Of a stretch of DNA of 64,000 bases, positions 9,331 through 59,297 are shown one piece after another. Position 1 is the stretch's first letter, and the number at the start of each line of letters is the position of its first letter. Source of the stretch: a bacterium (GTDB taxonomy: Bacteria > Patescibacteriota > Minisyncoccia > Phycocordibacterales > Phycocordibacteraceae); the NCBI GenBank assembly GCA_023269085.1, contig JAHFML010000003.1, positions 52,863 to 116,862 on the forward strand, read 5' to 3'. Under the pieces are notes generated by a model that was not told the origin of the DNA, did no database searches, and saw only the letters and a list, made by a program, of their open reading frames with translations. The position numbers were made by a program, and so were the translations under genes.

Positions 9331-10741
9331 GACGGGCTCTAACTTTTTGATCGAAGGCGTACAGGCTAAAACCGCCGAAGGCGGTTCGCCCGACGCGGCA
9401 CAGAGTGCCGCGTTTAGGGGCAAGATGCTCGTCGACTGCGGTATGGAGCAGGGGGGCGACTTCGCGGTCGCCGAGATCTATGCGCCCTTCGCCTATGATG
9501 CCGCTTCTATCGACGCGCTCGTCGTGACGCACGCGCACCTCGATCATGTCGGGCGTATCCCCAAGCTTGTGCGGGAAGGGTTCAAAGGGAAAATATATAT
9601 GACTCCGCCGACCAAGGATCTCGCGCTCCTCATCCTTCACGATTCCATTAACATCTTGCGCGAAGAAGCGATGCGCCTCGGCAGGGCGCCCTTGTATGAA
9701 GCCGAGGATGTCGAGCGCGCGACCGCACTCATCGAAACGCTCGACTATCATATTGAGAAAGAAGTGGCGCCGGGCCTCTCGGTCTATTATCGCAACACGG
9801 GGCACATCCTCGGCGCGGCGAGCGTGCGCATCACGGATGAAGAGGGCACCGTGCTCGTGCTCACGGGCGACATCGGCAACTCGCCCTCGCCGCTCCTGCC
9901 CGACTGGGAGCCGGTCCCGGGCGCCGATGCGCTCCTCATGGAGAGTGTGTATGGCGACCGGCTCCACCCGGCGCACGCTGATCGCGTCGCGCGCTTGCGC
10001 GAGGCGCTCAAGCGCGCGATAGCGAAGGGCGGCACCATTCTTATCCCATCCTTCTCGATAGAACGCACCCAGCTCATGCTCTATGAGCTCTCCAACTTCT
10101 TCTCGGCGAGCGAGCTCCCGCCGGTGCCCGTCTTCCTCGATTCGCCGCTCGCTATCCATGTGACCGAGGTGTATGAGAAGTATGGCGCGACCTACTTCAA
10201 GAGCGAGGCCGAAGAGGAGATGAAGCGCGAGAAGAGCCTTTTCGAGTTCCCCTTCTTACAGAAGACGCTCGCACCAGAGGACTCGGCCGCGATAGCGAAG
10301 GTGCCGAGCCCGAAGATTATCATCGCGGGCGCGGGCATGAGCCATGGCGGCCGCATCGGCCGCTGGGAGGCGCGCTACTTGCCCGACCCAACCACGACGC
10401 TTCTCATCGTCGGCTACCAAGCCCCCGGCTCGCCGGGCAGGCGCATGGCCGACGGCGCACCGACGGTGCGCCTCGGCGGGCAGACGATTCACAATAGAGC
10501 GACCGTCGAGATTCTCGAGGGTTGGTCGGCGCATGCTGATCGCGACGAGCTTTTGAAATTTGCCGAAGAGGCACTCACCGACAAAAATAAAAAACTCAAG
10601 ACCATCTTCGTCGCGCTCGGCGAGCCTTCGGCCGAACGGTTCCTCGCCCAGCGCATCCATGACTACCTCGGCGCGACCGCCATAGTCCCCGAGCCCGCCG
10701 AGACATGGGAGATCTCGAAGGATGAGGTGAAGAGGGTGTGA
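9293..10741 (+). CDS. MBL-fold beta-CASP family ribonuclease (RNase J/CPSF-like)
   Basis: MLKLTSFGGAGKVTGSNFLIEG...VVTHAHLDHVGRIPKL (HxHxDH); beta-CASP C-terminal motifs; start placed at the internal Met matching the duplicated fragment. Confidence 0.75.
   Translation: MLKLTSFGGAGKVTGSNFLIEGVQAKTAEGGSPDAAQSAAFRGKMLVDCGMEQGGDFAVAEIYAPFAYDAASIDALVVTHAHLDHVGRIPKLVREGFKGKIYMTPPTKDLALLILHDSINILREEAMRLGRAPLYEAEDVERATALIETLDYHIEKEVAPGLSVYYRNTGHILGAASVRITDEEGTVLVLTGDIGNSPSPLLPDWEPVPGADALLMESVYGDRLHPAHADRVARLREALKRAIAKGGTILIPSFSIERTQLMLYELSNFFSASELPPVPVFLDSPLAIHVTEVYEKYGATYFKSEAEEEMKREKSLFEFPFLQKTLAPEDSAAIAKVPSPKIIIAGAGMSHGGRIGRWEARYLPDPTTTLLIVGYQAPGSPGRRMADGAPTVRLGGQTIHNRATVEILEGWSAHADRDELLKFAEEALTDKNKKLKTIFVALGEPSAERFLAQRIHDYLGATAIVPEPAETWEISKDEVKRV
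9366..9418 (+). repeat. In-frame ~53-nt palindromic insertion element (TIR ctaaaac...gtttag, two hairpins), copy 1
   Basis: ctaaaaccgccgaaggcggttcgcccgacgcggcacagagtgccgcgtttagg; ~80% identical to 56629..56678 in gatC. Confidence 0.75.
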
Positions 10742-17754: not shown

Positions 17755-17813
17755 CGCCACAGCAGAAAGGGGCTTTCGCCAGTCGGCAGGCTCGGCCGTT
17801 TTCTGCTGTGGCG
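17755..17813 (+). promoter_or_regulatory. Conserved 5' leader stem-loop of DGR-1 target gene (paralogue at 54000..54058)
   Basis: cgccacagcagaaa...tttctgctgtggcg 14-bp stem with an inner hairpin; ~85% identical to the copy upstream of the second DGR target, with compensatory changes in the inner stem. Confidence 0.7.
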
Positions 17814-17887
17814 AACCGAATATGTCGGTGCGTCGTACAGCACGCGACAATATCAGCAATGATAGTCGCACAAAAGGAGATCGCATC

Positions 17888-19361: not shown

Positions 19362-19373
19362 GGGGGGGGGGGG
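19362..19373 (+). repeat. Homopolymeric G12 tract in the 50-nt divergent avd/RT intergenic region
   Basis: cgtcGGGGGGGGGGGGtacgttcagaagaATG; lies 14 nt upstream of the RT ATG and 26 nt upstream of the avd start. Confidence 0.95.
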
Positions 19374-19386
19374 TACGTTCAGAAGA

Positions 19387-20409
19387 ATGGATAGAATAAA
19401 TATCACTCATTCCTTCGACAATATCACCTTGGTAGATAATTTGCTCGACGCGTGGAAAGAATTCTTGCGCGGCAAACAGAAGAGGAAAGACGTGCAAGTA
19501 TTCGGATATAATCTAATTGAAAATATAAAAAGCATCCACGCGGACCTCATTTCCGGCATCTACCAGCACGGCCAGTACGAGCACTTCAAAATCAACGACC
19601 CAAAGCCCCGCGACATCCACAAAGCGAGCGTGCGCGACCGGCTCGTGCACCATGCCATTTATCGCATTCTCTACCCATTCTTCGATCGCACTTTTATCAG
19701 CGACTCCTACTCCTGCCGCAATGGGAAGGGGACGCACAAAGCCATGAATCGCTTTAGAGCCTTTGCGCGCAAAGTATCGAAGAATGACACGCGCACTGCT
19801 TGGGTCTTGAAGTGCGACATACGCAAGTTCTTCGCATCGATTGATCAGCCAACGCTCCTCGCCCTCTTGAGAGAACGCATTTCAGACGAACGCACCCTGC
19901 TACTCCTGCAACGAGTTATCGAGAGCTTCTCAAGTACAGCGAGAGGGAAAGGCCTCCCGCTCGGCAATCTCACCTCACAGCTCCTCGTGAACATCTACAT
20001 GAACGAGTCCGATCAATTCGTGAAGCATATACTCAAAGCGAAATACTATATCCGCTATGCCGATGACTTCGTATTCATCTCCCACGATCGCAGAGAACTC
20101 GAGGCGCTTCTGCCTCGTGTCGATGCCTTTTTGCGCGACCGGCTCAAGCTCGAATTGCACCCGAATAAAGTCTCAATCGCCACGCTCGCTTCGGGTATCG
20201 ACTTCTTGGGCTGGGTGCATTTCTCTGACCATCGCGTCTTGCGAGGCGCGACGAAGCGACGGATGTTGCGGAGGATTGAAGAGACGAGCGACAAGCCGGA
20301 GGTGATGAGCTCGTATCTGGGGATGCTAGAGCATGGAAATGGGTACAAGTTGCGAGAAGAGATTATGTATTTGCATACACTCACCGAGGCGCGTACCATG
20401 GTGGCATGA
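19387..20409 (+). CDS. DGR-type reverse transcriptase, DGR-1
   Basis: RT motifs including YADD and the DGR-characteristic LGNLTSQ (motif 4, in place of the group II QGxxxSP); start could alternatively be the upstream in-frame ATG at 19285. Confidence 0.9.
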   Translation: MDRINITHSFDNITLVDNLLDAWKEFLRGKQKRKDVQVFGYNLIENIKSIHADLISGIYQHGQYEHFKINDPKPRDIHKASVRDRLVHHAIYRILYPFFDRTFISDSYSCRNGKGTHKAMNRFRAFARKVSKNDTRTAWVLKCDIRKFFASIDQPTLLALLRERISDERTLLLLQRVIESFSSTARGKGLPLGNLTSQLLVNIYMNESDQFVKHILKAKYYIRYADDFVFISHDRRELEALLPRVDAFLRDRLKLELHPNKVSIATLASGIDFLGWVHFSDHRVLRGATKRRMLRRIEETSDKPEVMSSYLGMLEHGNGYKLREEIMYLHTLTEARTMVA

Positions 20410-26477: not shown

Positions 26478-26492
26478 GAACGAAATCAATTT

Positions 26493-26517
26493 CGGGTGGA
26501 CACTAGGTGTCCACCCG
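26493..26517 (+). repeat. 25-bp inverted-repeat element copy 1 (cgggtggacac-tag-gtgtccacccg)
   Basis: 11-bp perfect arms with a 3-nt spacer; 4 copies in the window. Confidence 0.95.
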
Positions 26518-27175: not shown

Positions 27176-27216
27176 CGCGGGCACGCCAGAGGCGTGCCCG
27201 CGGTTTCTCTTTTTTA
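27176..27216 (+). terminator. Rho-independent terminator
   Basis: cgcgggcacgcc agag gcgtgcccgcg + tttctctttttt. Confidence 0.7.
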
Positions 27217-27228
27217 CTTCTATCCTCG

Positions 27229-27253
27229 TGGGTGGACACTAGGTGTCCACCCA
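27229..27253 (+). repeat. 25-bp inverted-repeat element copy 2
   Basis: tgggtggacactaggtgtccaccca. Confidence 0.95.
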
Positions 27254-31228: not shown

Positions 31229-31279
31229 CTGTGCTCTCAAGATACCATGCCGCCCGCGCGTCGTGCAAGTCGATGAAAA

Positions 31280-31304
31280 CGGGTGGACACTAGGTGTCCA
31301 CCCG
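31280..31304 (+). repeat. 25-bp inverted-repeat element copy 3
   Basis: cgggtggacactaggtgtccacccg. Confidence 0.95.
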
Positions 31305-36556: not shown

Positions 36557-36991
36557 ATGGAACCAACCACGGAAGTAAAACCGAAAGCGACTAAAACTTC
36601 CTCAGGAAGTTCGTCCGACACTTCGCGAAGCGAAGTGTCTAGGAAGCGTGTTTCGAAGAAGGTCGCGGCCGTCGCTCCGGTAGTCGAGCACAAGCTCCGG
36701 ATCCGGGTTCGCGCCTATGAGCACAAGATTCTCGATCTCTCGGTGAAGCAGATCATGGACACAGCGGCGCGTTTCGACGCGGTGATCGTGGGCCCTGTCC
36801 CGCTCCCGACCGAGATCAAGCGTTGGACAGTGAACCGCTCGACCTTCGTCCACAAGGACGCGCGCGAGCAGTTCGAGATGCGCATCCATAAGCGCCTCAT
36901 CGACATCCGGAACCCGTCGCCGAAGGTGATCGAGGCCCTCACGAACCTCAATCTCCCCTCCGGTGTGACGATTGATGTGAAGATGGTGTAG
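36557..36991 (+). CDS. rpsJ: 30S ribosomal protein S10 with ~42-aa Lys/Ser-rich N-terminal extension
   Basis: ...HKLRIRVRAYEHKILDLSVKQIMDTAARFDAVIVGPVPLPTEIKRWTVNRSTFVHKDAREQFEMRIHKRLIDI. Confidence 0.9.
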   Translation: MEPTTEVKPKATKTSSGSSSDTSRSEVSRKRVSKKVAAVAPVVEHKLRIRVRAYEHKILDLSVKQIMDTAARFDAVIVGPVPLPTEIKRWTVNRSTFVHKDAREQFEMRIHKRLIDIRNPSPKVIEALTNLNLPSGVTIDVKMV

Positions 36992-40406: not shown

Positions 40407-40419
40407 TCGGGGGGGGGGG
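40407..40419 (+). repeat. Homopolymeric G13 tract 40 nt upstream of the surface-protein gene
   Basis: cctcGGGGGGGGGGGGGtacgctacag; flanks closely resemble the G12 tract region of DGR-1 (cgtcG12tacgttcag). Confidence 0.95.
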
Positions 40420-40459
40420 GGTACGCTACAGGTATATCCACCGCGCATAACCCATACCC

Positions 40460-47826: not shown

Positions 47827-48327
47827 ATGTACAAGAATCGTTCACGTGGTTTCACCCTTATTGAATTGCTCGTCGTCATCGCCATCATCGGCGTCTTGTC
47901 GGCCGTCGTCCTCGCTTCGCTCAACACCGCGCGTAGCAAGGGTAACGATGCGGCTATCAAGTCGAATCTCGGCACGGTGTTGACCCAGTCGGCTATCTAT
48001 TATGATACGTATAGCGCCTATGTGAGCGCCGGAACACCAGCTGCAGTTGGAACTCCGACAGTCGCTGCGTGTGGTACTGCGACCTCGTTGTTCGCAGATG
48101 CAAACGTAACACAGGCACTGATCTCTTCCGACAAGGCAGCAGGAGGTCCTGGTACGACGCTCGCCAACATGACGAAAACATACTGTGGTTTTACCGGAAG
48201 TCTTGCTACGTGGGTTGTCTATACCGTTCTCTTGAATAACGGAGCCACAGGACAGTCATGGTGTGTCGATAGCTCGGGGAACTCGAAGCAGATAGCGACG
48301 CCTGCGGGAGCCCTTGCTAATTGTTAG
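47827..48327 (+). CDS. Type IV pilin (major pilin candidate)
   Basis: Prepilin leader + GFTLIELLVVIAIIGVL N-methylation motif. Confidence 0.9.
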   Translation: MYKNRSRGFTLIELLVVIAIIGVLSAVVLASLNTARSKGNDAAIKSNLGTVLTQSAIYYDTYSAYVSAGTPAAVGTPTVAACGTATSLFADANVTQALISSDKAAGGPGTTLANMTKTYCGFTGSLATWVVYTVLLNNGATGQSWCVDSSGNSKQIATPAGALANC

Positions 48328-51913: not shown

Positions 51914-53956
<2,043 letters not shown>

Positions 53957-53999
53957 TGCTATCCTCTACGCAGGTTTTAGGTCTTTTCACTTGTGCATC

Positions 54000-54058
54000 C
54001 GCCACAGCAGAAAGGGGCTTCCGCCAACCGGCGGACTAGGCCGTTTTCTGCTGTGGCG
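54000..54058 (+). promoter_or_regulatory. Conserved 5' leader stem-loop of DGR-2 target gene
   Basis: cgccacagcagaaa...tttctgctgtggcg; paralogue of 17755..17813. Confidence 0.7.
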
Positions 54059-54120
54059 AACCGAATAGGTACGCTTGAACAGCACTGTAAAAACGCTCTT
54101 CCCAAGCCAAGGAGAAAGTC

Positions 54121-54714
54121 ATGAGCGCACAACAGAAGCAAATCACGAAACTAGTGGCCGCTCTGGTCGAGTTTTCTGACCAGTTCGGCCAGATGTCGAC
54201 CGAGGATTGCCAATGGGCAATCCAAAACACGAAAGCGGCAATCGGCCTCTTCGTAGAGGCGGTGAGGAATCGCCCGATAGCAGCTCTGGTCGGGTTGCCA
54301 GAAGGCACGGTCATCCGTCGCGTGAAGGTCGACCGCTCGCATTCTCCGCAGAAAATGGTGAACGCGACCGGCCGTAGGCAGTACATCGACAAGGACATCC
54401 TCGCGACGATGCCTTTGGGCGAAGGCGACGAGGTGGATGTGTACTTCGTACCGACCAAGCGCTTCGTTTTGGCAAGTGAGGTCTCGGCGTTTCTCGCGCA
54501 GTATGGTCTCGTTCCCGACCCGCGCGCGCAAACGGCGGTGAACGAAGCCGATCCGACCTTCGCCGACGACCATCCGAACGGAACGCAATGGAGCGATTTT
54601 TGCTACCTGACGTTCTACCGCTGGTATGACGAGCGGGACGTGTACTGCAACCGCGACGACCGCGTCTGGCGCGGCTATTGGTTCCTCTCGGGTGTCCCGA
54701 CTCCCCGCAAGTAA
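54121..54714 (+). CDS. DGR-2 target protein with C-terminal variable region
   Basis: SD AAGGAGA 5 nt upstream; VR occupies the last ~36 codons (…CYLTFYRWYDERDVYCNRDDRVWRGYWFLSGVPTPRK). Confidence 0.75.
   Translation: MSAQQKQITKLVAALVEFSDQFGQMSTEDCQWAIQNTKAAIGLFVEAVRNRPIAALVGLPEGTVIRRVKVDRSHSPQKMVNATGRRQYIDKDILATMPLGEGDEVDVYFVPTKRFVLASEVSAFLAQYGLVPDPRAQTAVNEADPTFADDHPNGTQWSDFCYLTFYRWYDERDVYCNRDDRVWRGYWFLSGVPTPRK
54601..54707 (+). repeat. DGR-2 variable repeat (VR)
   Basis: 107 nt aligning to 55025..55131; ~14 mismatches, all at TR adenines. Confidence 0.9.
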
Positions 54715-54763
54715 GTCCTCGGGTCTTTGAGTATAAGAACTCTTTAGACCCTTAACCCTTTGT

Positions 54764-54792
54764 GCGCCGCTTTCCCAAGCGGCGCATTTTGT
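54764..54792 (+). terminator. Rho-independent terminator after DGR-2 target
   Basis: gcgccgc tttcccaa gcggcgc + attttgt. Confidence 0.7.
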
Positions 54793-55024
54793 ATATGATG
54801 CAAATGGTAGTAGGCGAATACGGAAGCGATTACGGTTTCTTCCTGCCGAATCCAGTATCCGTACGTTGAGAACGTGTGCGATTACGGTTGCATATGGAGG
54901 ATGTACGCAGAAACTTCAAAAAATGAAGATACTTGGTGTGAAGTGCTGGCGCATTACCGATGCCGAATACGATTCAACCTTGAGAATACTCGATGGGTGG
55001 TGGCACAGATGGCGCTCCATACAT

Positions 55025-55131
55025 TGCTACCTGACGTTCAACCGCTGGAATGACGAGCGGAACGTGAACTGCAACCGCAACGACAACGACTGGAACGACA
55101 ATTGGTTCCTCTCGGGTGTCCCGACTCCCCG
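55025..55131 (+). repeat. DGR-2 template repeat (TR)
   Basis: AAC-rich in VR frame (…NRWNDERNVNCNRNDNDWNDNWF…); intergenic. Confidence 0.9.
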
Positions 55132-55140
55132 TAACTCTCT

Positions 55141-55509
55141 TCATTTCTCGCCCGAACCTCTATGTTCGGGCGAGTTTTGTTTAACGAGCTGCCCATTCCA
55201 TCCACCAAGCATTCTCCCGACCTCCTCAAGTGGCATCGAGAGAGCGATGTATTTCTTCGTATCGAGCGATTTGGTCTCCCAGAGGATGAGTAAGAATATT
55301 TTTAGCGTATCGAGTTTACGAATAGCGAGACGCACCCACGGCTGTTTCTCAGTTTTTGAGAGAAAGCTTGCACTTGCGACTGCTTCAATCAACGCAACGA
55401 ATTCCGCGTCAACTGTTCCACCGAGCGTGTGCCGATGGGTCTTCGGTATGGTTTGATAAAATCCATACCATATAATATACGCATGCTTAATACGCTCGAG
55501 CACCGGCAA
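55141..55509 (-). CDS. avd: Avd homologue, DGR-2
   Basis: 122 aa; ...LSMPLEEVGRMLGGWNGQLVKQ resembles the Avd C-terminus; TTG start. Confidence 0.7.
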   Translation of the reverse strand: MPVLERIKHAYIIWYGFYQTIPKTHRHTLGGTVDAEFVALIEAVASASFLSKTEKQPWVRLAIRKLDTLKIFLLILWETKSLDTKKYIALSMPLEEVGRMLGGWNGQLVKQNSPEHRGSGEK

Positions 55510-55516
55510 GAGCCTC

Positions 55517-55526
55517 GGGGGGGGGG
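55517..55526 (+). repeat. Homopolymeric G10 tract between divergent avd-2 and RT-2
   Basis: agcctcGGGGGGGGGGagcttcgaag; 8 nt upstream of avd-2 start. Confidence 0.95.
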
Positions 55527-55606
55527 AGCTTCGAAGAATCGAATTCGTTCATACCTATGAGCATATCATCTCGATCGAGAACCTTCTCGACGCGTGGCGA
55601 GAATTC

Positions 55607-56542
55607 GTGAGAGGGAAGAAGAAGCGTGCGGATGTGCAAGAGTTCGAGAGAGACTTGATGCAAAATGTCATATCGTTGCATCGTTATCTCGTGTCTGGCG
55701 CGTACCAGCACGGCCAGTACGAGCGCTTCAAAATCAACGACCCCAAGCCTCGCGACATCCACAAAGCGAGCGTGCGCGATCGGCTCGTGCACCATGCCAT
55801 CTATCGCATTCTATATCCATTCTTCGACCGCACTTTCATCAGCGACTCCTATTCCTGCCGCAATGGGAAGGGAACGCACAGAGCCATGAATCGCTTTAGA
55901 GCCTTTGCGCGCAAAGTATCGAAGAATGACACGCGCACTGCTTGGGTCTTGAAGTGCGACATACGCAAGTTCTTCGCCTCGATTGATCAGTCAACGCTCC
56001 TCGTCATCTTGAAGAGACGCATAACAGACGAACGCACGCTGACACTTCTGCAACGAGTTATCGAGAGCTTCCGCACACCCTGTGCAACACCTGGTGTTGC
56101 ACAAAAAGGCCTCCCGCTTGGCAACCTTACCTCACAACTCCTCGTGAACATCTACATGAACGAGTTCGATCAATTCGTGAAGCACGCGCTCAAAGCAAGA
56201 TACTATCTCCGCTATGCCGATGACTTCGTATTCATCTCTCACGACCGCAGAGAGCTCGAGGCGCTTCTGCCTCGGGTCGATGCCTTTTTGCGCGACCGGC
56301 TCAAGCTCGAACTGCATCCAGACAAAGTCTCAATCGCCACGCTCGCTTCGGGTATCGACTTCTTGGGCTGGGTGCATTTCTCTGACCATCGCGTTGTGCG
56401 AGGCGCGACGAAGCGGCGGATGTTGCGGAGGATTGAAGAGATGGGTGGCAAGCCAGAGGTGGTGAGCTCGTATCTGGGGATGCTCTCGCACGGGAACGCG
56501 TACCGGCTTGTTGCTCATATTTCAGAACAGAAGGAAAAGTGA
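55607..56542 (+). CDS. DGR-type reverse transcriptase, DGR-2
   Basis: ~85% identical to RT-1; YADD and LGNLTSQ motifs; no ATG equivalent to RT-1 Met1 (ATG->ATC), so the true N-terminus is unclear. Confidence 0.85.
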   Translation: MRGKKKRADVQEFERDLMQNVISLHRYLVSGAYQHGQYERFKINDPKPRDIHKASVRDRLVHHAIYRILYPFFDRTFISDSYSCRNGKGTHRAMNRFRAFARKVSKNDTRTAWVLKCDIRKFFASIDQSTLLVILKRRITDERTLTLLQRVIESFRTPCATPGVAQKGLPLGNLTSQLLVNIYMNEFDQFVKHALKARYYLRYADDFVFISHDRRELEALLPRVDAFLRDRLKLELHPDKVSIATLASGIDFLGWVHFSDHRVVRGATKRRMLRRIEEMGGKPEVVSSYLGMLSHGNAYRLVAHISEQKEK

Positions 56543-56555
56543 TACAGTAGAAACC

Positions 56556-56900
56556 ATGGCGACTACAGAGGAGGTGAAGAAGCTCGCGGCCTTGGCGCGG
56601 ATTACCATTGCCGACGAAGAACTCACGACTAAAACCGCCCAAGGCGGTTCGTCCGACGCCGCAGAAGCGGCGTTTAGGAAGTTTACGAGTGAGTTTGACG
56701 CTATCTTGGCGTATGTCGGCCAGCTCGAGGAGCTCGAGTTGCCCGAGGGCTTGGTGGGAGAGAAGCCGGCCTTGCGGAACATCTTTCGTGATGACGCAGA
56801 GCCGTATCCCGCGCGCACCTTTACCGAAAAGATTACAGCGCAATTTCCGGCACGTTCGGGCGACGCGCTCTTGGTGAAGCAAATCATTTCTCATGAATAA
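56556..56900 (+). CDS. gatC: Glu/Asp-tRNA amidotransferase subunit C
   Basis: MATTEEVKKLAALARITIADEEL...ILAYVGQLEELEL...ALRNIFRDD; carries an in-frame 50-nt element. Confidence 0.85.
   Translation: MATTEEVKKLAALARITIADEELTTKTAQGGSSDAAEAAFRKFTSEFDAILAYVGQLEELELPEGLVGEKPALRNIFRDDAEPYPARTFTEKITAQFPARSGDALLVKQIISHE
56629..56678 (+). repeat. In-frame ~50-nt palindromic insertion element, copy 2 (in gatC)
   Basis: ctaaaaccgcccaaggcggttcgtccgacgccgcagaagcggcgtttagg; encodes TKTAQGGSSDAAEAAFR. Confidence 0.75.
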
Positions 56901-58932: not shown

Positions 58933-59007
58933 GTTGCAAAGCGATTGAGAAGCGGTATAGTGTACCTATCGCAGAGACGCAGGGTCTCTTGCGGTTATGA
59001 GAATATA

Positions 59008-59297
59008 GCGGGGTAGAGGAGAGGTACCTCGGGAGGCTTGAGTTATTCGGGCGTGCGCGCGAGCAATTGCGCGTAAGATCATCTGTCAAATTCGGCGAAC
59101 CCCTCTCGCGAAAACGAAAGGCAACACCGAGCCAAGCTTTGCGAATAATCGCAAGGAAGGTGTAGAGACTAGACGGCAGACATCCTGAGCGTAGTCGAAG
59201 GATGAAGGCATAGTCCAGACCACAAACGAAAGGCAATGAAAATTGTAGTGGTAAGCATAACCTCCAGACCCTGGTTCGATTCCAGGCCCCGCAACAA
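59008..59297 (+). ncRNA. ssrA: Candidate tmRNA-like RNA (tRNA-like T-arm plus acceptor-like 3' end); identity uncertain
   Basis: 3' end ...CCTGG-TTCGATT-CCAGG-CCCCGCA-A mimics T-arm plus acceptor strand; complementary GCGGGG ~285 nt upstream; 410-nt ORF-free interval; followed by a strong terminator; tag ORF not confidently identified. Confidence 0.4.

Follow-up and report, generated by a model that had tools for sequence, protein, structure and literature searches.

DGR-2, a second diversity-generating retroelement of a Patescibacteria genome, with a structured template RNA and a repeat tract between avd and the reverse transcriptase gene

How would a targeted mutator be operated in a very small genome when the gene for its central enzyme has no canonical start codon where its conserved sequence begins? 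The question is raised by positions 54000-56542 of a 64,000-nt stretch of DNA from contig JAHFML010000003.1 of a member of the Patescibacteria (Candidate Phyla Radiation, CPR); this whole stretch is referred to as the window. A first-pass annotation of the window had read these positions as a second diversity-generating retroelement (DGR), DGR-2, located about 36 kb from DGR-1 and equipped with its own template repeat (TR), accessory variability determinant gene (avd) and reverse transcriptase (RT) gene. This reading was backed by the A-specific differences between TR and the variable repeat (VR) of the target gene, by the homology of Avd and RT, and by 160 similarly built cassettes elsewhere. 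We conclude with high confidence that DGR-2 is a genuine DGR of a Patescibacteria lineage, with the architecture TR-(avd)-RT and a target protein whose C-terminus has been rewritten. Since ligA, gatC, gatA and type IV pilus genes flank the cassette, the window is chromosomal.

Identification of DGR-2

A repeat finder returned a direct repeat of 111 nt with 88% identity, the copies of which are the VR (54600-54710, plus strand) and the TR (55024-55134, plus strand). The VR forms the last 37 codons of the target open reading frame (ORF), which lies at 54121-54714 as first described. Base-by-base comparison yielded 13 differences: 12 fall on TR adenines (A>T five times, A>G five times and A>C twice), and the only other one is T>C at VR position 54708, three bases before the 3' end of the homology. 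The first-pass annotation had counted about 14 mismatches and assigned all of them to TR adenines, a statement that thus needs correction in the count and in one base. The TR contains 28 adenines, many in the register of AAC or AAT codons, of which 12 are altered in the VR (hypergeometric P = 8.5e-8 for at least 12 of 13 mismatches on TR adenines). These changes are distributed over 10 codons (AAC, AAT and GAC) and every one is non-synonymous; the ten diversified codons show that homing took place at some time. An ordinary local duplication in place of retrohoming would explain that a 111-nt repeat exists and nothing more, and it is refuted by the base specificity of the differences (12 of 13 at TR adenines), with avd and RT adjoining the repeats and the same pattern in 64 related cassettes, so that we give it practically no credence.

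The last A-to-N change is located at VR position 54676. Beyond it follows a G+C-rich segment of 34 nt (54677-54710, plus strand) in which TR adenines exist but are unchanged, and which by analogy may serve as an initiation of mutagenic homing (IMH) sequence. VR and TR had first been given distinct 3' ends; here the A-unchanged segment was found, but the ends differ in the single base T>C at 54708. The boundaries of the features of the cassette proved right, exactly or to within 1-3 nt. No further VR for TR-2 or TR-1 was found in the window, the best other site for TR-2 matching at 42 of 83 non-A positions. A 114-nt repeat pair at 47848/48435 was considered as a third TR/VR pair and rejected; its mismatches spread over all bases and it lies within paralogous pilin-like genes.

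The avd-2 gene (55141-55509, minus strand) begins with TTG and encodes 122 amino acids. It is a real avd homologue, as proposed, with matches to NF033474 (DivGenRetAVD; E 1.5e-15, 57 bits at a curated cut-off of 80, aligned over the full length) and PF22296 (bAvd; E 1e-9, 39.3 bits at a cut-off of 40), and is 86% identical to the avd of a Kaiserbacteria metagenome-assembled genome (MAG). The RT-2 coding region occupies 55538-56542 on the plus strand (RVT_1, E 3.8e-25), and its translation has intact YADD and LGNLTSQ motifs. The motif (I/L/V)GxxxSQ is diagnostic of DGR-type RTs; no DGR-specific RT model was among the library matches of RT-2. The first-pass annotation had the identity and the end of this gene right, but its start, 55607, is merely the first canonical start codon (GTG) of a frame that is open from 55460. 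This frame contains no ATG, GTG or TTG between the stop codon at 55457 and GTG 55607, and homology to other RTs begins at ATC codon 55538. The 23 codons preceding GTG 55607 (YEHIISIENLLDAWREF) are conserved with relatives, 160 relatives align with RT-2 in tblastn at 57-75% identity (from residues 1-7 to about 324-334), identity to other relatives reaches 76% in the N-terminal 50 residues, and the frame is intact over 334 codons.

The lack of an ATG equivalent to RT-1 Met1 had been named as a possible sign of a pseudogene. No ATG, GTG or TTG occurs at or near that position, but this is poor evidence for a pseudogene. Among the relatives with a G run between avd and RT, 44 of 132 have no canonical in-frame start after the run either, so the missing ATG is not a private lesion of RT-2, and the start-less relatives examined have VRs mutated at adenines (L020, 9/9; L041, 13/13; L060, 20/20).

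A spurious plus-strand ORF of 196 amino acids (54866-55456) spans the TR and the antisense strand of avd. In public contigs, gene callers took this frame (products of 177-183 amino acids) over avd and called the RT from ATG 55658 (294 amino acids); through these choices automatic annotation of DGR-2 misses avd and truncates the RT.

Relatives and known systems

Taking one genome per species, we examined the best 80 of 584 candidate relatives of RT-2 (57-69% identity), and a metagenome scan added 80 further loci (up to 75% identity) to give a total of 160. The best 80 genome loci all derive from MAGs of Patescibacteria or from bins without classification, with Kaiserbacteria, Paceibacterota, Nomurabacteria and Yanofskybacteria among them; many are labelled Saccharibacteria by automated pipelines. 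The relatives share the order target/VR, TR, reversed avd and RT, with every avd match found on the opposite strand just upstream of the RT. In 64 genome loci and both cassettes of the window, a TR/VR pair of 94-144 nt occupies the same places: the TR ends at most about 50 nt from the stop codon of avd, with the VR another 400-530 nt or so upstream, and the mismatches fall overwhelmingly at TR adenines.

In two papers on DGRs, the B3 architecture, TR-(avd)-RT, accounts for 90% of CPR DGRs (Wu et al. 2018, PMC5758913), and DGR clade 2 is described as restricted to Patescibacteria, with targets without known domains (Roux et al. 2021, PMC8144416). DGR-2 resembles the DGRs of these groups in how TR, reversed avd and RT are ordered and oriented, in a target located directly upstream with a C-terminal VR, in the domainless target and in the host lineage, and nothing places it outside the group. 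It is an ordinary, well-formed addition to a known and abundant group of CPR DGRs. Two DGRs in one genome are not unusual; about 10% of DGR-bearing genomes are reported to have several, and three MAGs among the best 80 genome loci hold two each (L002/L003, L021/L029 and L031/L073). The avd-RT gaps of L021 and L029 are nearly identical, one G apart.

The Bordetella phage BPP-1 element (mtd-avd-TR-brt), the prototype for the mechanism, has in common with DGR-2 the A-to-N mutagenesis of a C-terminal VR, a pair of Avd and RT, an invariant G+C-rich 3' segment of about 34 nt (the IMH of BPP-1, IMH-like in DGR-2) and a hairpin just downstream of the VR. The template RNA of the Bordetella phage is part of an avd-TR-spacer-RT transcript. 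In DGR-2, by contrast, TR and RT are separated by an avd gene of reverse orientation, which leaves no such co-transcript, and where BPP-1 has a spacer of about 140 nt the TR apparently belongs to a short RNA of its own, with a 5' domain and a terminator about 50 nt past the TR. Furthermore, the 3' ends of VR and TR are one base apart in DGR-2, unlike the several differences between IMH and IMH* in BPP-1, and DGR-2 resides in the chromosome of a cell and not in a phage. The IMH of BPP-1 is given as 34 bp, followed by an inverted repeat (PMC5758913).

A structured template RNA

On the simplest reading of the sequence, the TR lies in an apparently autonomous RNA of about 380 nt (about 54806-55182) whose ends are predicted from promoter and terminator signals. 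A consensus scan found the promoter-like site TTCCCA-16-TATGAT at 54772-54799 (plus strand), with a predicted start near 54806, and in most relatives examined a TATACT-, TACAAT- or TATGAT-like hexamer directly follows the T tract of the preceding terminator.

An alignment of 61 loci revealed a conserved region of about 165 nt upstream of the TR, and covariation in this alignment supports a structured 5' domain at 54859-55022 (plus strand). In DGR-2 the domain consists of a hairpin at 54873-54896 and a long-range helix of 12 bp (54936-54947/55011-55022), which encloses two further hairpins (54951-54963 and 54977-54998) and stops 1 nt before the TR. RNAalifold found compensatory changes in 29 of 31 pairs. 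For the structure described, 95.1% of the alignment cells are paired, compared to 72.7% in shuffles and 32-52% with slid partners; the covariation score was 0.71 against at most 0.20 in controls, and none of 500 shuffles reached any of the observed measures. A profile from which the rows of the window were left out gave exactly two hits in the window, 54859-55030 (E 1.4e-44) and the copy of DGR-1 (E 3.3e-21). Rfam yielded no family for the TR RNA or its hairpins, either with the whole window at gathering threshold or with the DGR-2 region at E values up to 5, apart from chance-level small-RNA matches on terminators. The domain is a defined substrate for in vitro reconstitution of a CPR DGR.

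Downstream of the TR, a stretch at 55133-55182 (plus strand) comprises the motif AACTCTCTTCATTTCTC (55133-55149), a G+C-rich hairpin (55147-55174) called as an intrinsic terminator by the scan, and TTTTGTTT (55175-55182). The TR RNA presumably ends with this stretch, which overlaps the 3' end of avd on the opposite strand. Most of the 66 cassettes listed have (C)GCAACTCTCTTCATTTCTC after the TR, then a G+C-rich hairpin of variable sequence and then GTTTTGTTTT.

Two contigs of sample ERZ27279563, L001 (from the window equivalent of 54938) and L082 (up to 54912), are identical to the window except for a switch to another DGR inside the RNA domain. We rejected both as independent views of the interval from VR to TR; they are assembly chimeras, and the conserved domain breaks or chimerises assemblies. 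L082 begins with the end of another type of target (...GDGRWVNAYWDVPGRQWGGVGAFAFPV*), homologous to the targets of L011, L041 and L028; the sample therefore contains a third DGR, possibly in the same genome outside the window.

Proposed course of mutagenesis

The target gene would be transcribed from its own promoter and its transcript would end just 3' of the VR. A promoter abutting the target terminator would give rise to the separate non-coding RNA, composed of the structured 5' domain, the 111-nt TR, the AACTCTCTTCATTTCTC motif and the terminator hairpin, and Avd-2 and RT-2 would be expressed divergently from the short gap that holds a tract of ten G (G10). By homology to BPP-1, the two proteins would then bind the TR RNA and copy the TR into cDNA, with misincorporation opposite adenines. 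The cDNA would replace the VR, with the 34-nt G+C-rich 3' segment as an IMH-like anchor. DGR-2 has rewritten the last 25 or so variable codons of a domainless protein of 197 amino acids, in a C-terminal domain that may resemble a divergent C-type-lectin fold. Within this scheme, the A-specific outcome can be read from the DNA itself and the structure of the TR RNA from covariation.

Several points weigh against our identification of DGR-2 as a working element of this kind. The steps other than the A-specific outcome are modelled on the Bordetella phage, in which avd and spacer are laid out differently. Avd-2 scores under the curated cut-offs of both NCBIfam and Pfam. Two independent contigs with the target carry an identical VR, giving no direct sign of ongoing diversification, and the 90% cluster of the target protein has one member; present activity cannot be judged from such consensus contigs, in either direction. 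Finally, full-length RT-2 could be expressed only by some unusual route, since the first canonical start codon comes after the conserved N-terminus.

A repeat tract between avd and RT

The G10 homopolymer (55517-55526) lies between the divergent avd and RT genes, 7 nt from the TTG of avd and 11 nt upstream of the first conserved RT codon, 55538. At the matching place DGR-1 has a G12 tract (19362-19373), followed by TACGTT, 7 nt and ATG 19387. We surveyed 149 related loci in which both gene starts are present. A run of G6-G14, usually G8-G13 with a mode of 9-10, occurs in the avd-RT gap of 132 of them, and at least 13 of the remaining 17 hold another simple repeat there: (CTGG)6-11, (TTGG)10, (GT)7-15, (TC)17 or (GATTGCT)10. 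In 72 genome loci that were measured, the avd-RT gaps, 3.3 kb in total, contain 62 homopolymer runs of at least 8 nt, compared to four G/C runs of this length in the remaining 594 kb or so.

Six contig pairs with flanks (600 nt) of at least 97% identity served to compare the length of the tract. It differs in two pairs, G11 against G10 with flanks 100% identical and G13 against G11 with flanks 99.7% identical; a further pair with 95.5% identical flanks differs in (GT)n. The DGR-2 tract is G10 in both existing assemblies (the window and L082), and an exact-pattern scan of JGI metagenomes for its flanks, with length variants of the tract, gave no match. Unrelated repeats share one position and length varies where nothing else does, which argues for selection for a mutable tract and not for a motif; in sequence terms this points to the signature of contingency loci. 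Two contigs end in, or are gapped by, 40-50 nt of poly-C at the avd-RT junction (L033:1-49 and L043:738-791). Probably the G tract gave rise to these as artefacts of sequencing or assembly, a warning that tract lengths taken from short-read assemblies call for confirmation in the reads.

The start of the RT relative to the run falls into distinct arrangements. In 75 of the 132 loci the run is followed by an ATG in frame, at a distance of exactly 13 nt in 30, and 46 of the full 132 have a TAnnnT hexamer directly behind the run. The combination of G run, TAnnnT, 7 nt and ATG resembles a -10 element, and we infer that the mRNA may be leaderless or nearly so, with the run in the promoter spacer. 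In 44 loci, DGR-2 included, no canonical in-frame start follows the run, which there lies inside the open RT frame.

Known contingency loci include poly-G/C tracts in the promoters of Neisseria porA and opc and Bordetella fim, G/C tracts of Campylobacter, and the TA repeats between the divergent Haemophilus genes hifA and hifB. The DGR-2 group is like them in that a repeat occupies a promoter or 5' region (the gap of a divergent gene pair in our case), that tract length varies between near-identical sequences, and that repeat types at one position differ by lineage. Unlike the contingency loci of surface structures, the genes concerned here encode enzymes of targeted mutagenesis, and the case is known from sequence alone. 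Our literature search, which had the key 2017 survey of CPR DGRs (by Paul et al., reportedly the first of its kind) outside its scope, found no report linking such repeats to DGRs or Patescibacteria, no report of phase-switch loci of this kind in Patescibacteria, and no description of a structured RNA domain 5' of the TR or of frequent RT genes without a canonical start. All three features (gap repeat, RT without a canonical start, structured TR RNA) appear to be properties of the whole CPR group and not of DGR-2 alone.

The window contains three G runs of at least 8 nt, two at the DGRs and a third upstream of a gene for a secreted protein. This third run, G13 at 40409-40421, is followed by TACGCT, a layout of G run and TAnnnT as at DGR-1, and lies about 40 nt upstream of ATG 40460, the start of a protein of 304 amino acids with a signal-peptide-like N-terminus. 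It may represent another repeat-controlled promoter.

How RT-2 could be made

The repeat sits exactly where the expression of avd and RT must be set. We tentatively propose, at somewhat less than an even chance, that the avd-RT gap of Patescibacteria DGRs is a conserved contingency locus whose repeat switches the mutator enzymes on and off, and that the two DGRs of this genome are switched independently. In loci with an ATG after the tract, such as DGR-1, the repeat would work by changing promoter spacing; in loci without one, such as DGR-2, it would affect the reading frame or initiation of the RT. A switch of this kind, if real, would offer a testable answer to the question of how very small genomes limit the cost of a mutator, and targeted protein hypermutation would itself be a stochastically switched trait.

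Applied to DGR-2, this proposal would mean that G10 is a hypermutable switch that leaves RT-2 OFF as sequenced, a possibility that we consider less likely than not. ATG 55483 is open into the run and lies 55 nt from codon 55538, one base more than would keep the frame; with G9 or G12 the RT would be fused to this ATG to give MLNTLEHRQEPRGG-ELRRIEFVHTYEH... Slippage of RNA polymerase or of ribosomes on the run could also produce the fusion at a low level, and DGR-2 would mutate its target only in a sub-population. In favour of such gating, it is the repetitiveness of the gap and not its sequence that is conserved (132 of 149 loci with a G run, others with different repeats at the same spot), long G/C runs are nearly absent from the rest of the same loci, and tract length varies between contigs with 100% or 99.7% identical flanks. 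Likewise, of two paralogous DGRs in one Kaiserbacteria MAG, L029 with G9 has its upstream ATGs in frame, and L021 with G10 has them out of frame. However, an in-frame upstream ATG is present in only 8 of 23 start-less relatives, the one third expected by chance. An ATG after the run occurs in 75 of 132 relatives, in 30 at exactly 13 nt and behind TAnnnT, and in such an arrangement the run does not belong to the coding frame, so that transcription would have to be its point of action. Tract length is also the same in four of the six near-identical contig pairs, and homopolymer lengths are error-prone in short-read assemblies.

Alternatively, RT-2 might be made constitutively, though probably weakly, from a near-cognate codon after the tract, most likely ATC 55538, with the run forming part of the promoter or ribosome-binding region and not a switch; we regard this as rather unlikely. 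ATC 55538 is the first codon homologous to the RTs of relatives, and its distance of 11 nt from the run is similar to the 13 nt typical of the relatives' ATG. In L041 the arrangement TAGAGT, 7 nt and ATT mimics TAnnnT, 7 nt and ATG, and one third of the family is start-less, with A-mutated VRs in the members examined. Against it, relatives with an ATG three codons upstream have the Ile codon just as often, so that protein conservation explains its presence, and ATH is absent from this position in 10 of the 23 start-less relatives. In the bacteria studied, initiation at ATC is very poor. A sequence-specific role of the G run would, moreover, leave its exchange for unrelated repeats unexplained.

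Still less probable is that RT-2 is never made; DGR-2 would then be a relic, or would depend on RT-1, encoded 36 kb away, to work in trans on the TR-2 RNA, perhaps with Avd-2 as partner. RT-2 lacks a canonical start whereas RT-1 has ATG 19387 in the family-standard arrangement of G12, TACGTT, 7 nt and ATG; the RT cores are 90% identical in protein, both TR RNAs share the conserved 5' domain, and the VR is identical in the available contigs. But RT-2 has an unbroken frame of 334 codons, retains the catalytic motifs and differs from RT-1 with an excess of synonymous changes, and its N-terminal 50 residues, up to 76% identical to those of relatives and 48% to RT-1, are conserved in their own right. 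The 44 equally start-less relatives mostly carry the sole DGR on their contig. The low identity of the Avds (30%) and the different N- and C-termini of the RTs may also enforce cognate pairing.

Comparison of the two DGRs

Alignment over the whole cassettes left two islands of similarity between DGR-1 and DGR-2, a 70-nt inverted repeat (90% identical) and the RT core. RT-2 and avd-2 had been described as clearly homologous to their DGR-1 counterparts but diverged; the homology stands, and the divergence applies to avd and the ends of the RT but not to its core. The nucleotide identity of the latter (19546-20320 against 55688-56475) is 92-95% and its amino-acid identity 90% (residues 51-313), while the N-terminal 50 residues are 48% and Avd-1 and Avd-2 30% identical. 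To the outside relatives compared, residues 51-313 of both copies are 66-75% identical; set against their mutual 90%, this indicates that the cores have been homogenised within the genome, by gene conversion or by a recent partial duplication as judged from sequence. No direction of homogenisation was found, both cores being about 70-75% identical to every outside relative. The cores differ by 31 synonymous and 27 non-synonymous codon changes, an excess that indicates purifying selection.

Cross-talk between the systems had been called unlikely. This holds for homing of cDNA to the wrong VR: the two TRs are unrelated, with TR-1 against VR-2 at background, and each cDNA should home only to its own VR. 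It does not hold for the RT protein, since near-identical cores and a shared 5' domain of the TR RNA make cross-talk at the enzyme level plausible. Near-identical RT cores beside very different Avds constitute a natural experiment on the specificity of RT, Avd and RNA. The targets of DGR-1 and DGR-2 are unrelated, as first stated (hhalign probability 0.1%).

The target gene and its flanks

The target gene (54121-54714, plus strand) encodes 197 amino acids, with a helical N-terminal region and a C-terminal domain that bears the VR. It has no recognisable domain or signal peptide, and neither DGR target matched Pfam or NCBIfam. All 145 homologues are about 200 amino acids long and lack both Pfam domains and informative names; those with an organism name all stem from Patescibacteria or an unclassified 'bacterium'. 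A homologue with 52% identity occurs in the Candidatus Kaiserbacteria MAG that also holds the nearest avd, and the closest avd and target sequences derive from Candidatus Kaiserbacteria and Paceibacterota MAGs. The family alignment shows the conserved scaffold C[YC]L.F.RW..ER.V.C.R....W...W[FW][LF][SA]GV, and its hypervariable columns are the positions at which TR-2 has AAC or AAT. Variable proteins with a C-type-lectin fold (Mtd, TvpA and those of archaea and Thermus) are the class for comparison. In the AlphaFold2 model of the target (mean predicted local distance difference test score 89.9), matches to C-type-lectin-like folds were weak but recurrent; Foldseek hits against PDB and BFVD were not significant, and a PDB sequence search with the target-family profile gave nothing under E 0.1. 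The C-terminal domain may have a divergent C-type-lectin fold.

Upstream of the gene, a promoter-like site TTGACA-17-TATCCT with TG before the second hexamer matches the consensus at 10 of 12 positions (53937-53965, plus strand). Downstream of this site lies an inverted repeat, CCACAGCAGAAA...TTTCTGCTGTGG (54000-54070, plus strand), and its position places it probably in the 5' leader of the target. It folds at -50.8 kcal/mol (z = -7.2). Over 70 nt it shares 90% identity with 17755-17825, located upstream of the target of DGR-1, despite unrelated flanks and targets. The same stem was found upstream of the targets of at least 13 relatives. Its general form is CCAYAGCAGAAA, 20-45 nt and TYTCTGCTRTGG, with a conserved outer stem and a variable inner part, and it could act as an RNA hairpin or as a protein-binding palindrome. 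An imperfect hairpin predicted by RNA folding begins 10 nt past the VR end (54721-54751, plus strand), and most relatives examined have a hairpin of differing sequence at this position. It is followed by an intrinsic-terminator-like structure (54762-54793, plus strand), consisting in the scan of an 11-bp stem and TTTGTATATG, which would end the target transcript; a strong hairpin with a T tract is present at this position in most relatives examined.

Other elements in the window

At 59007-59295 a tRNA gene is split in the anticodon loop by a group I intron of 217 nt (Rfam RF00028, 56 bits at 59030-59235). ARAGORN finds the split tRNA only when introns are allowed, and its call of Ser(tga) is doubtful, the mature length being 72 nt without a long variable arm. 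A hairpin-forming repeat of about 35-50 nt, CTAAAACCGCCSAAGGCGGTTCGYCCGACGC..., occurs in frame in three unrelated genes (9366-9400, 36591-36625 and 56629-56663), which encode a beta-CASP/MBL-type protein (..AKTAEGGSPDAAQSAAFRG..), the N-terminus of an S10-like ribosomal protein and GatC (..TKTAQGGSSDAAEAAFRK..); it resembles the small palindromic elements of Rickettsia that insert in frame into genes. A perfect palindrome, GGGTGGACAC(C)TAGGTGTCCACCC, is present in four copies (26478-26517, 27214-27253, 31265-31304 and 52236-52275). The copy at 52236 lies inside the ligA ORF, so at least one of the copies is part of an essential gene's reading frame.

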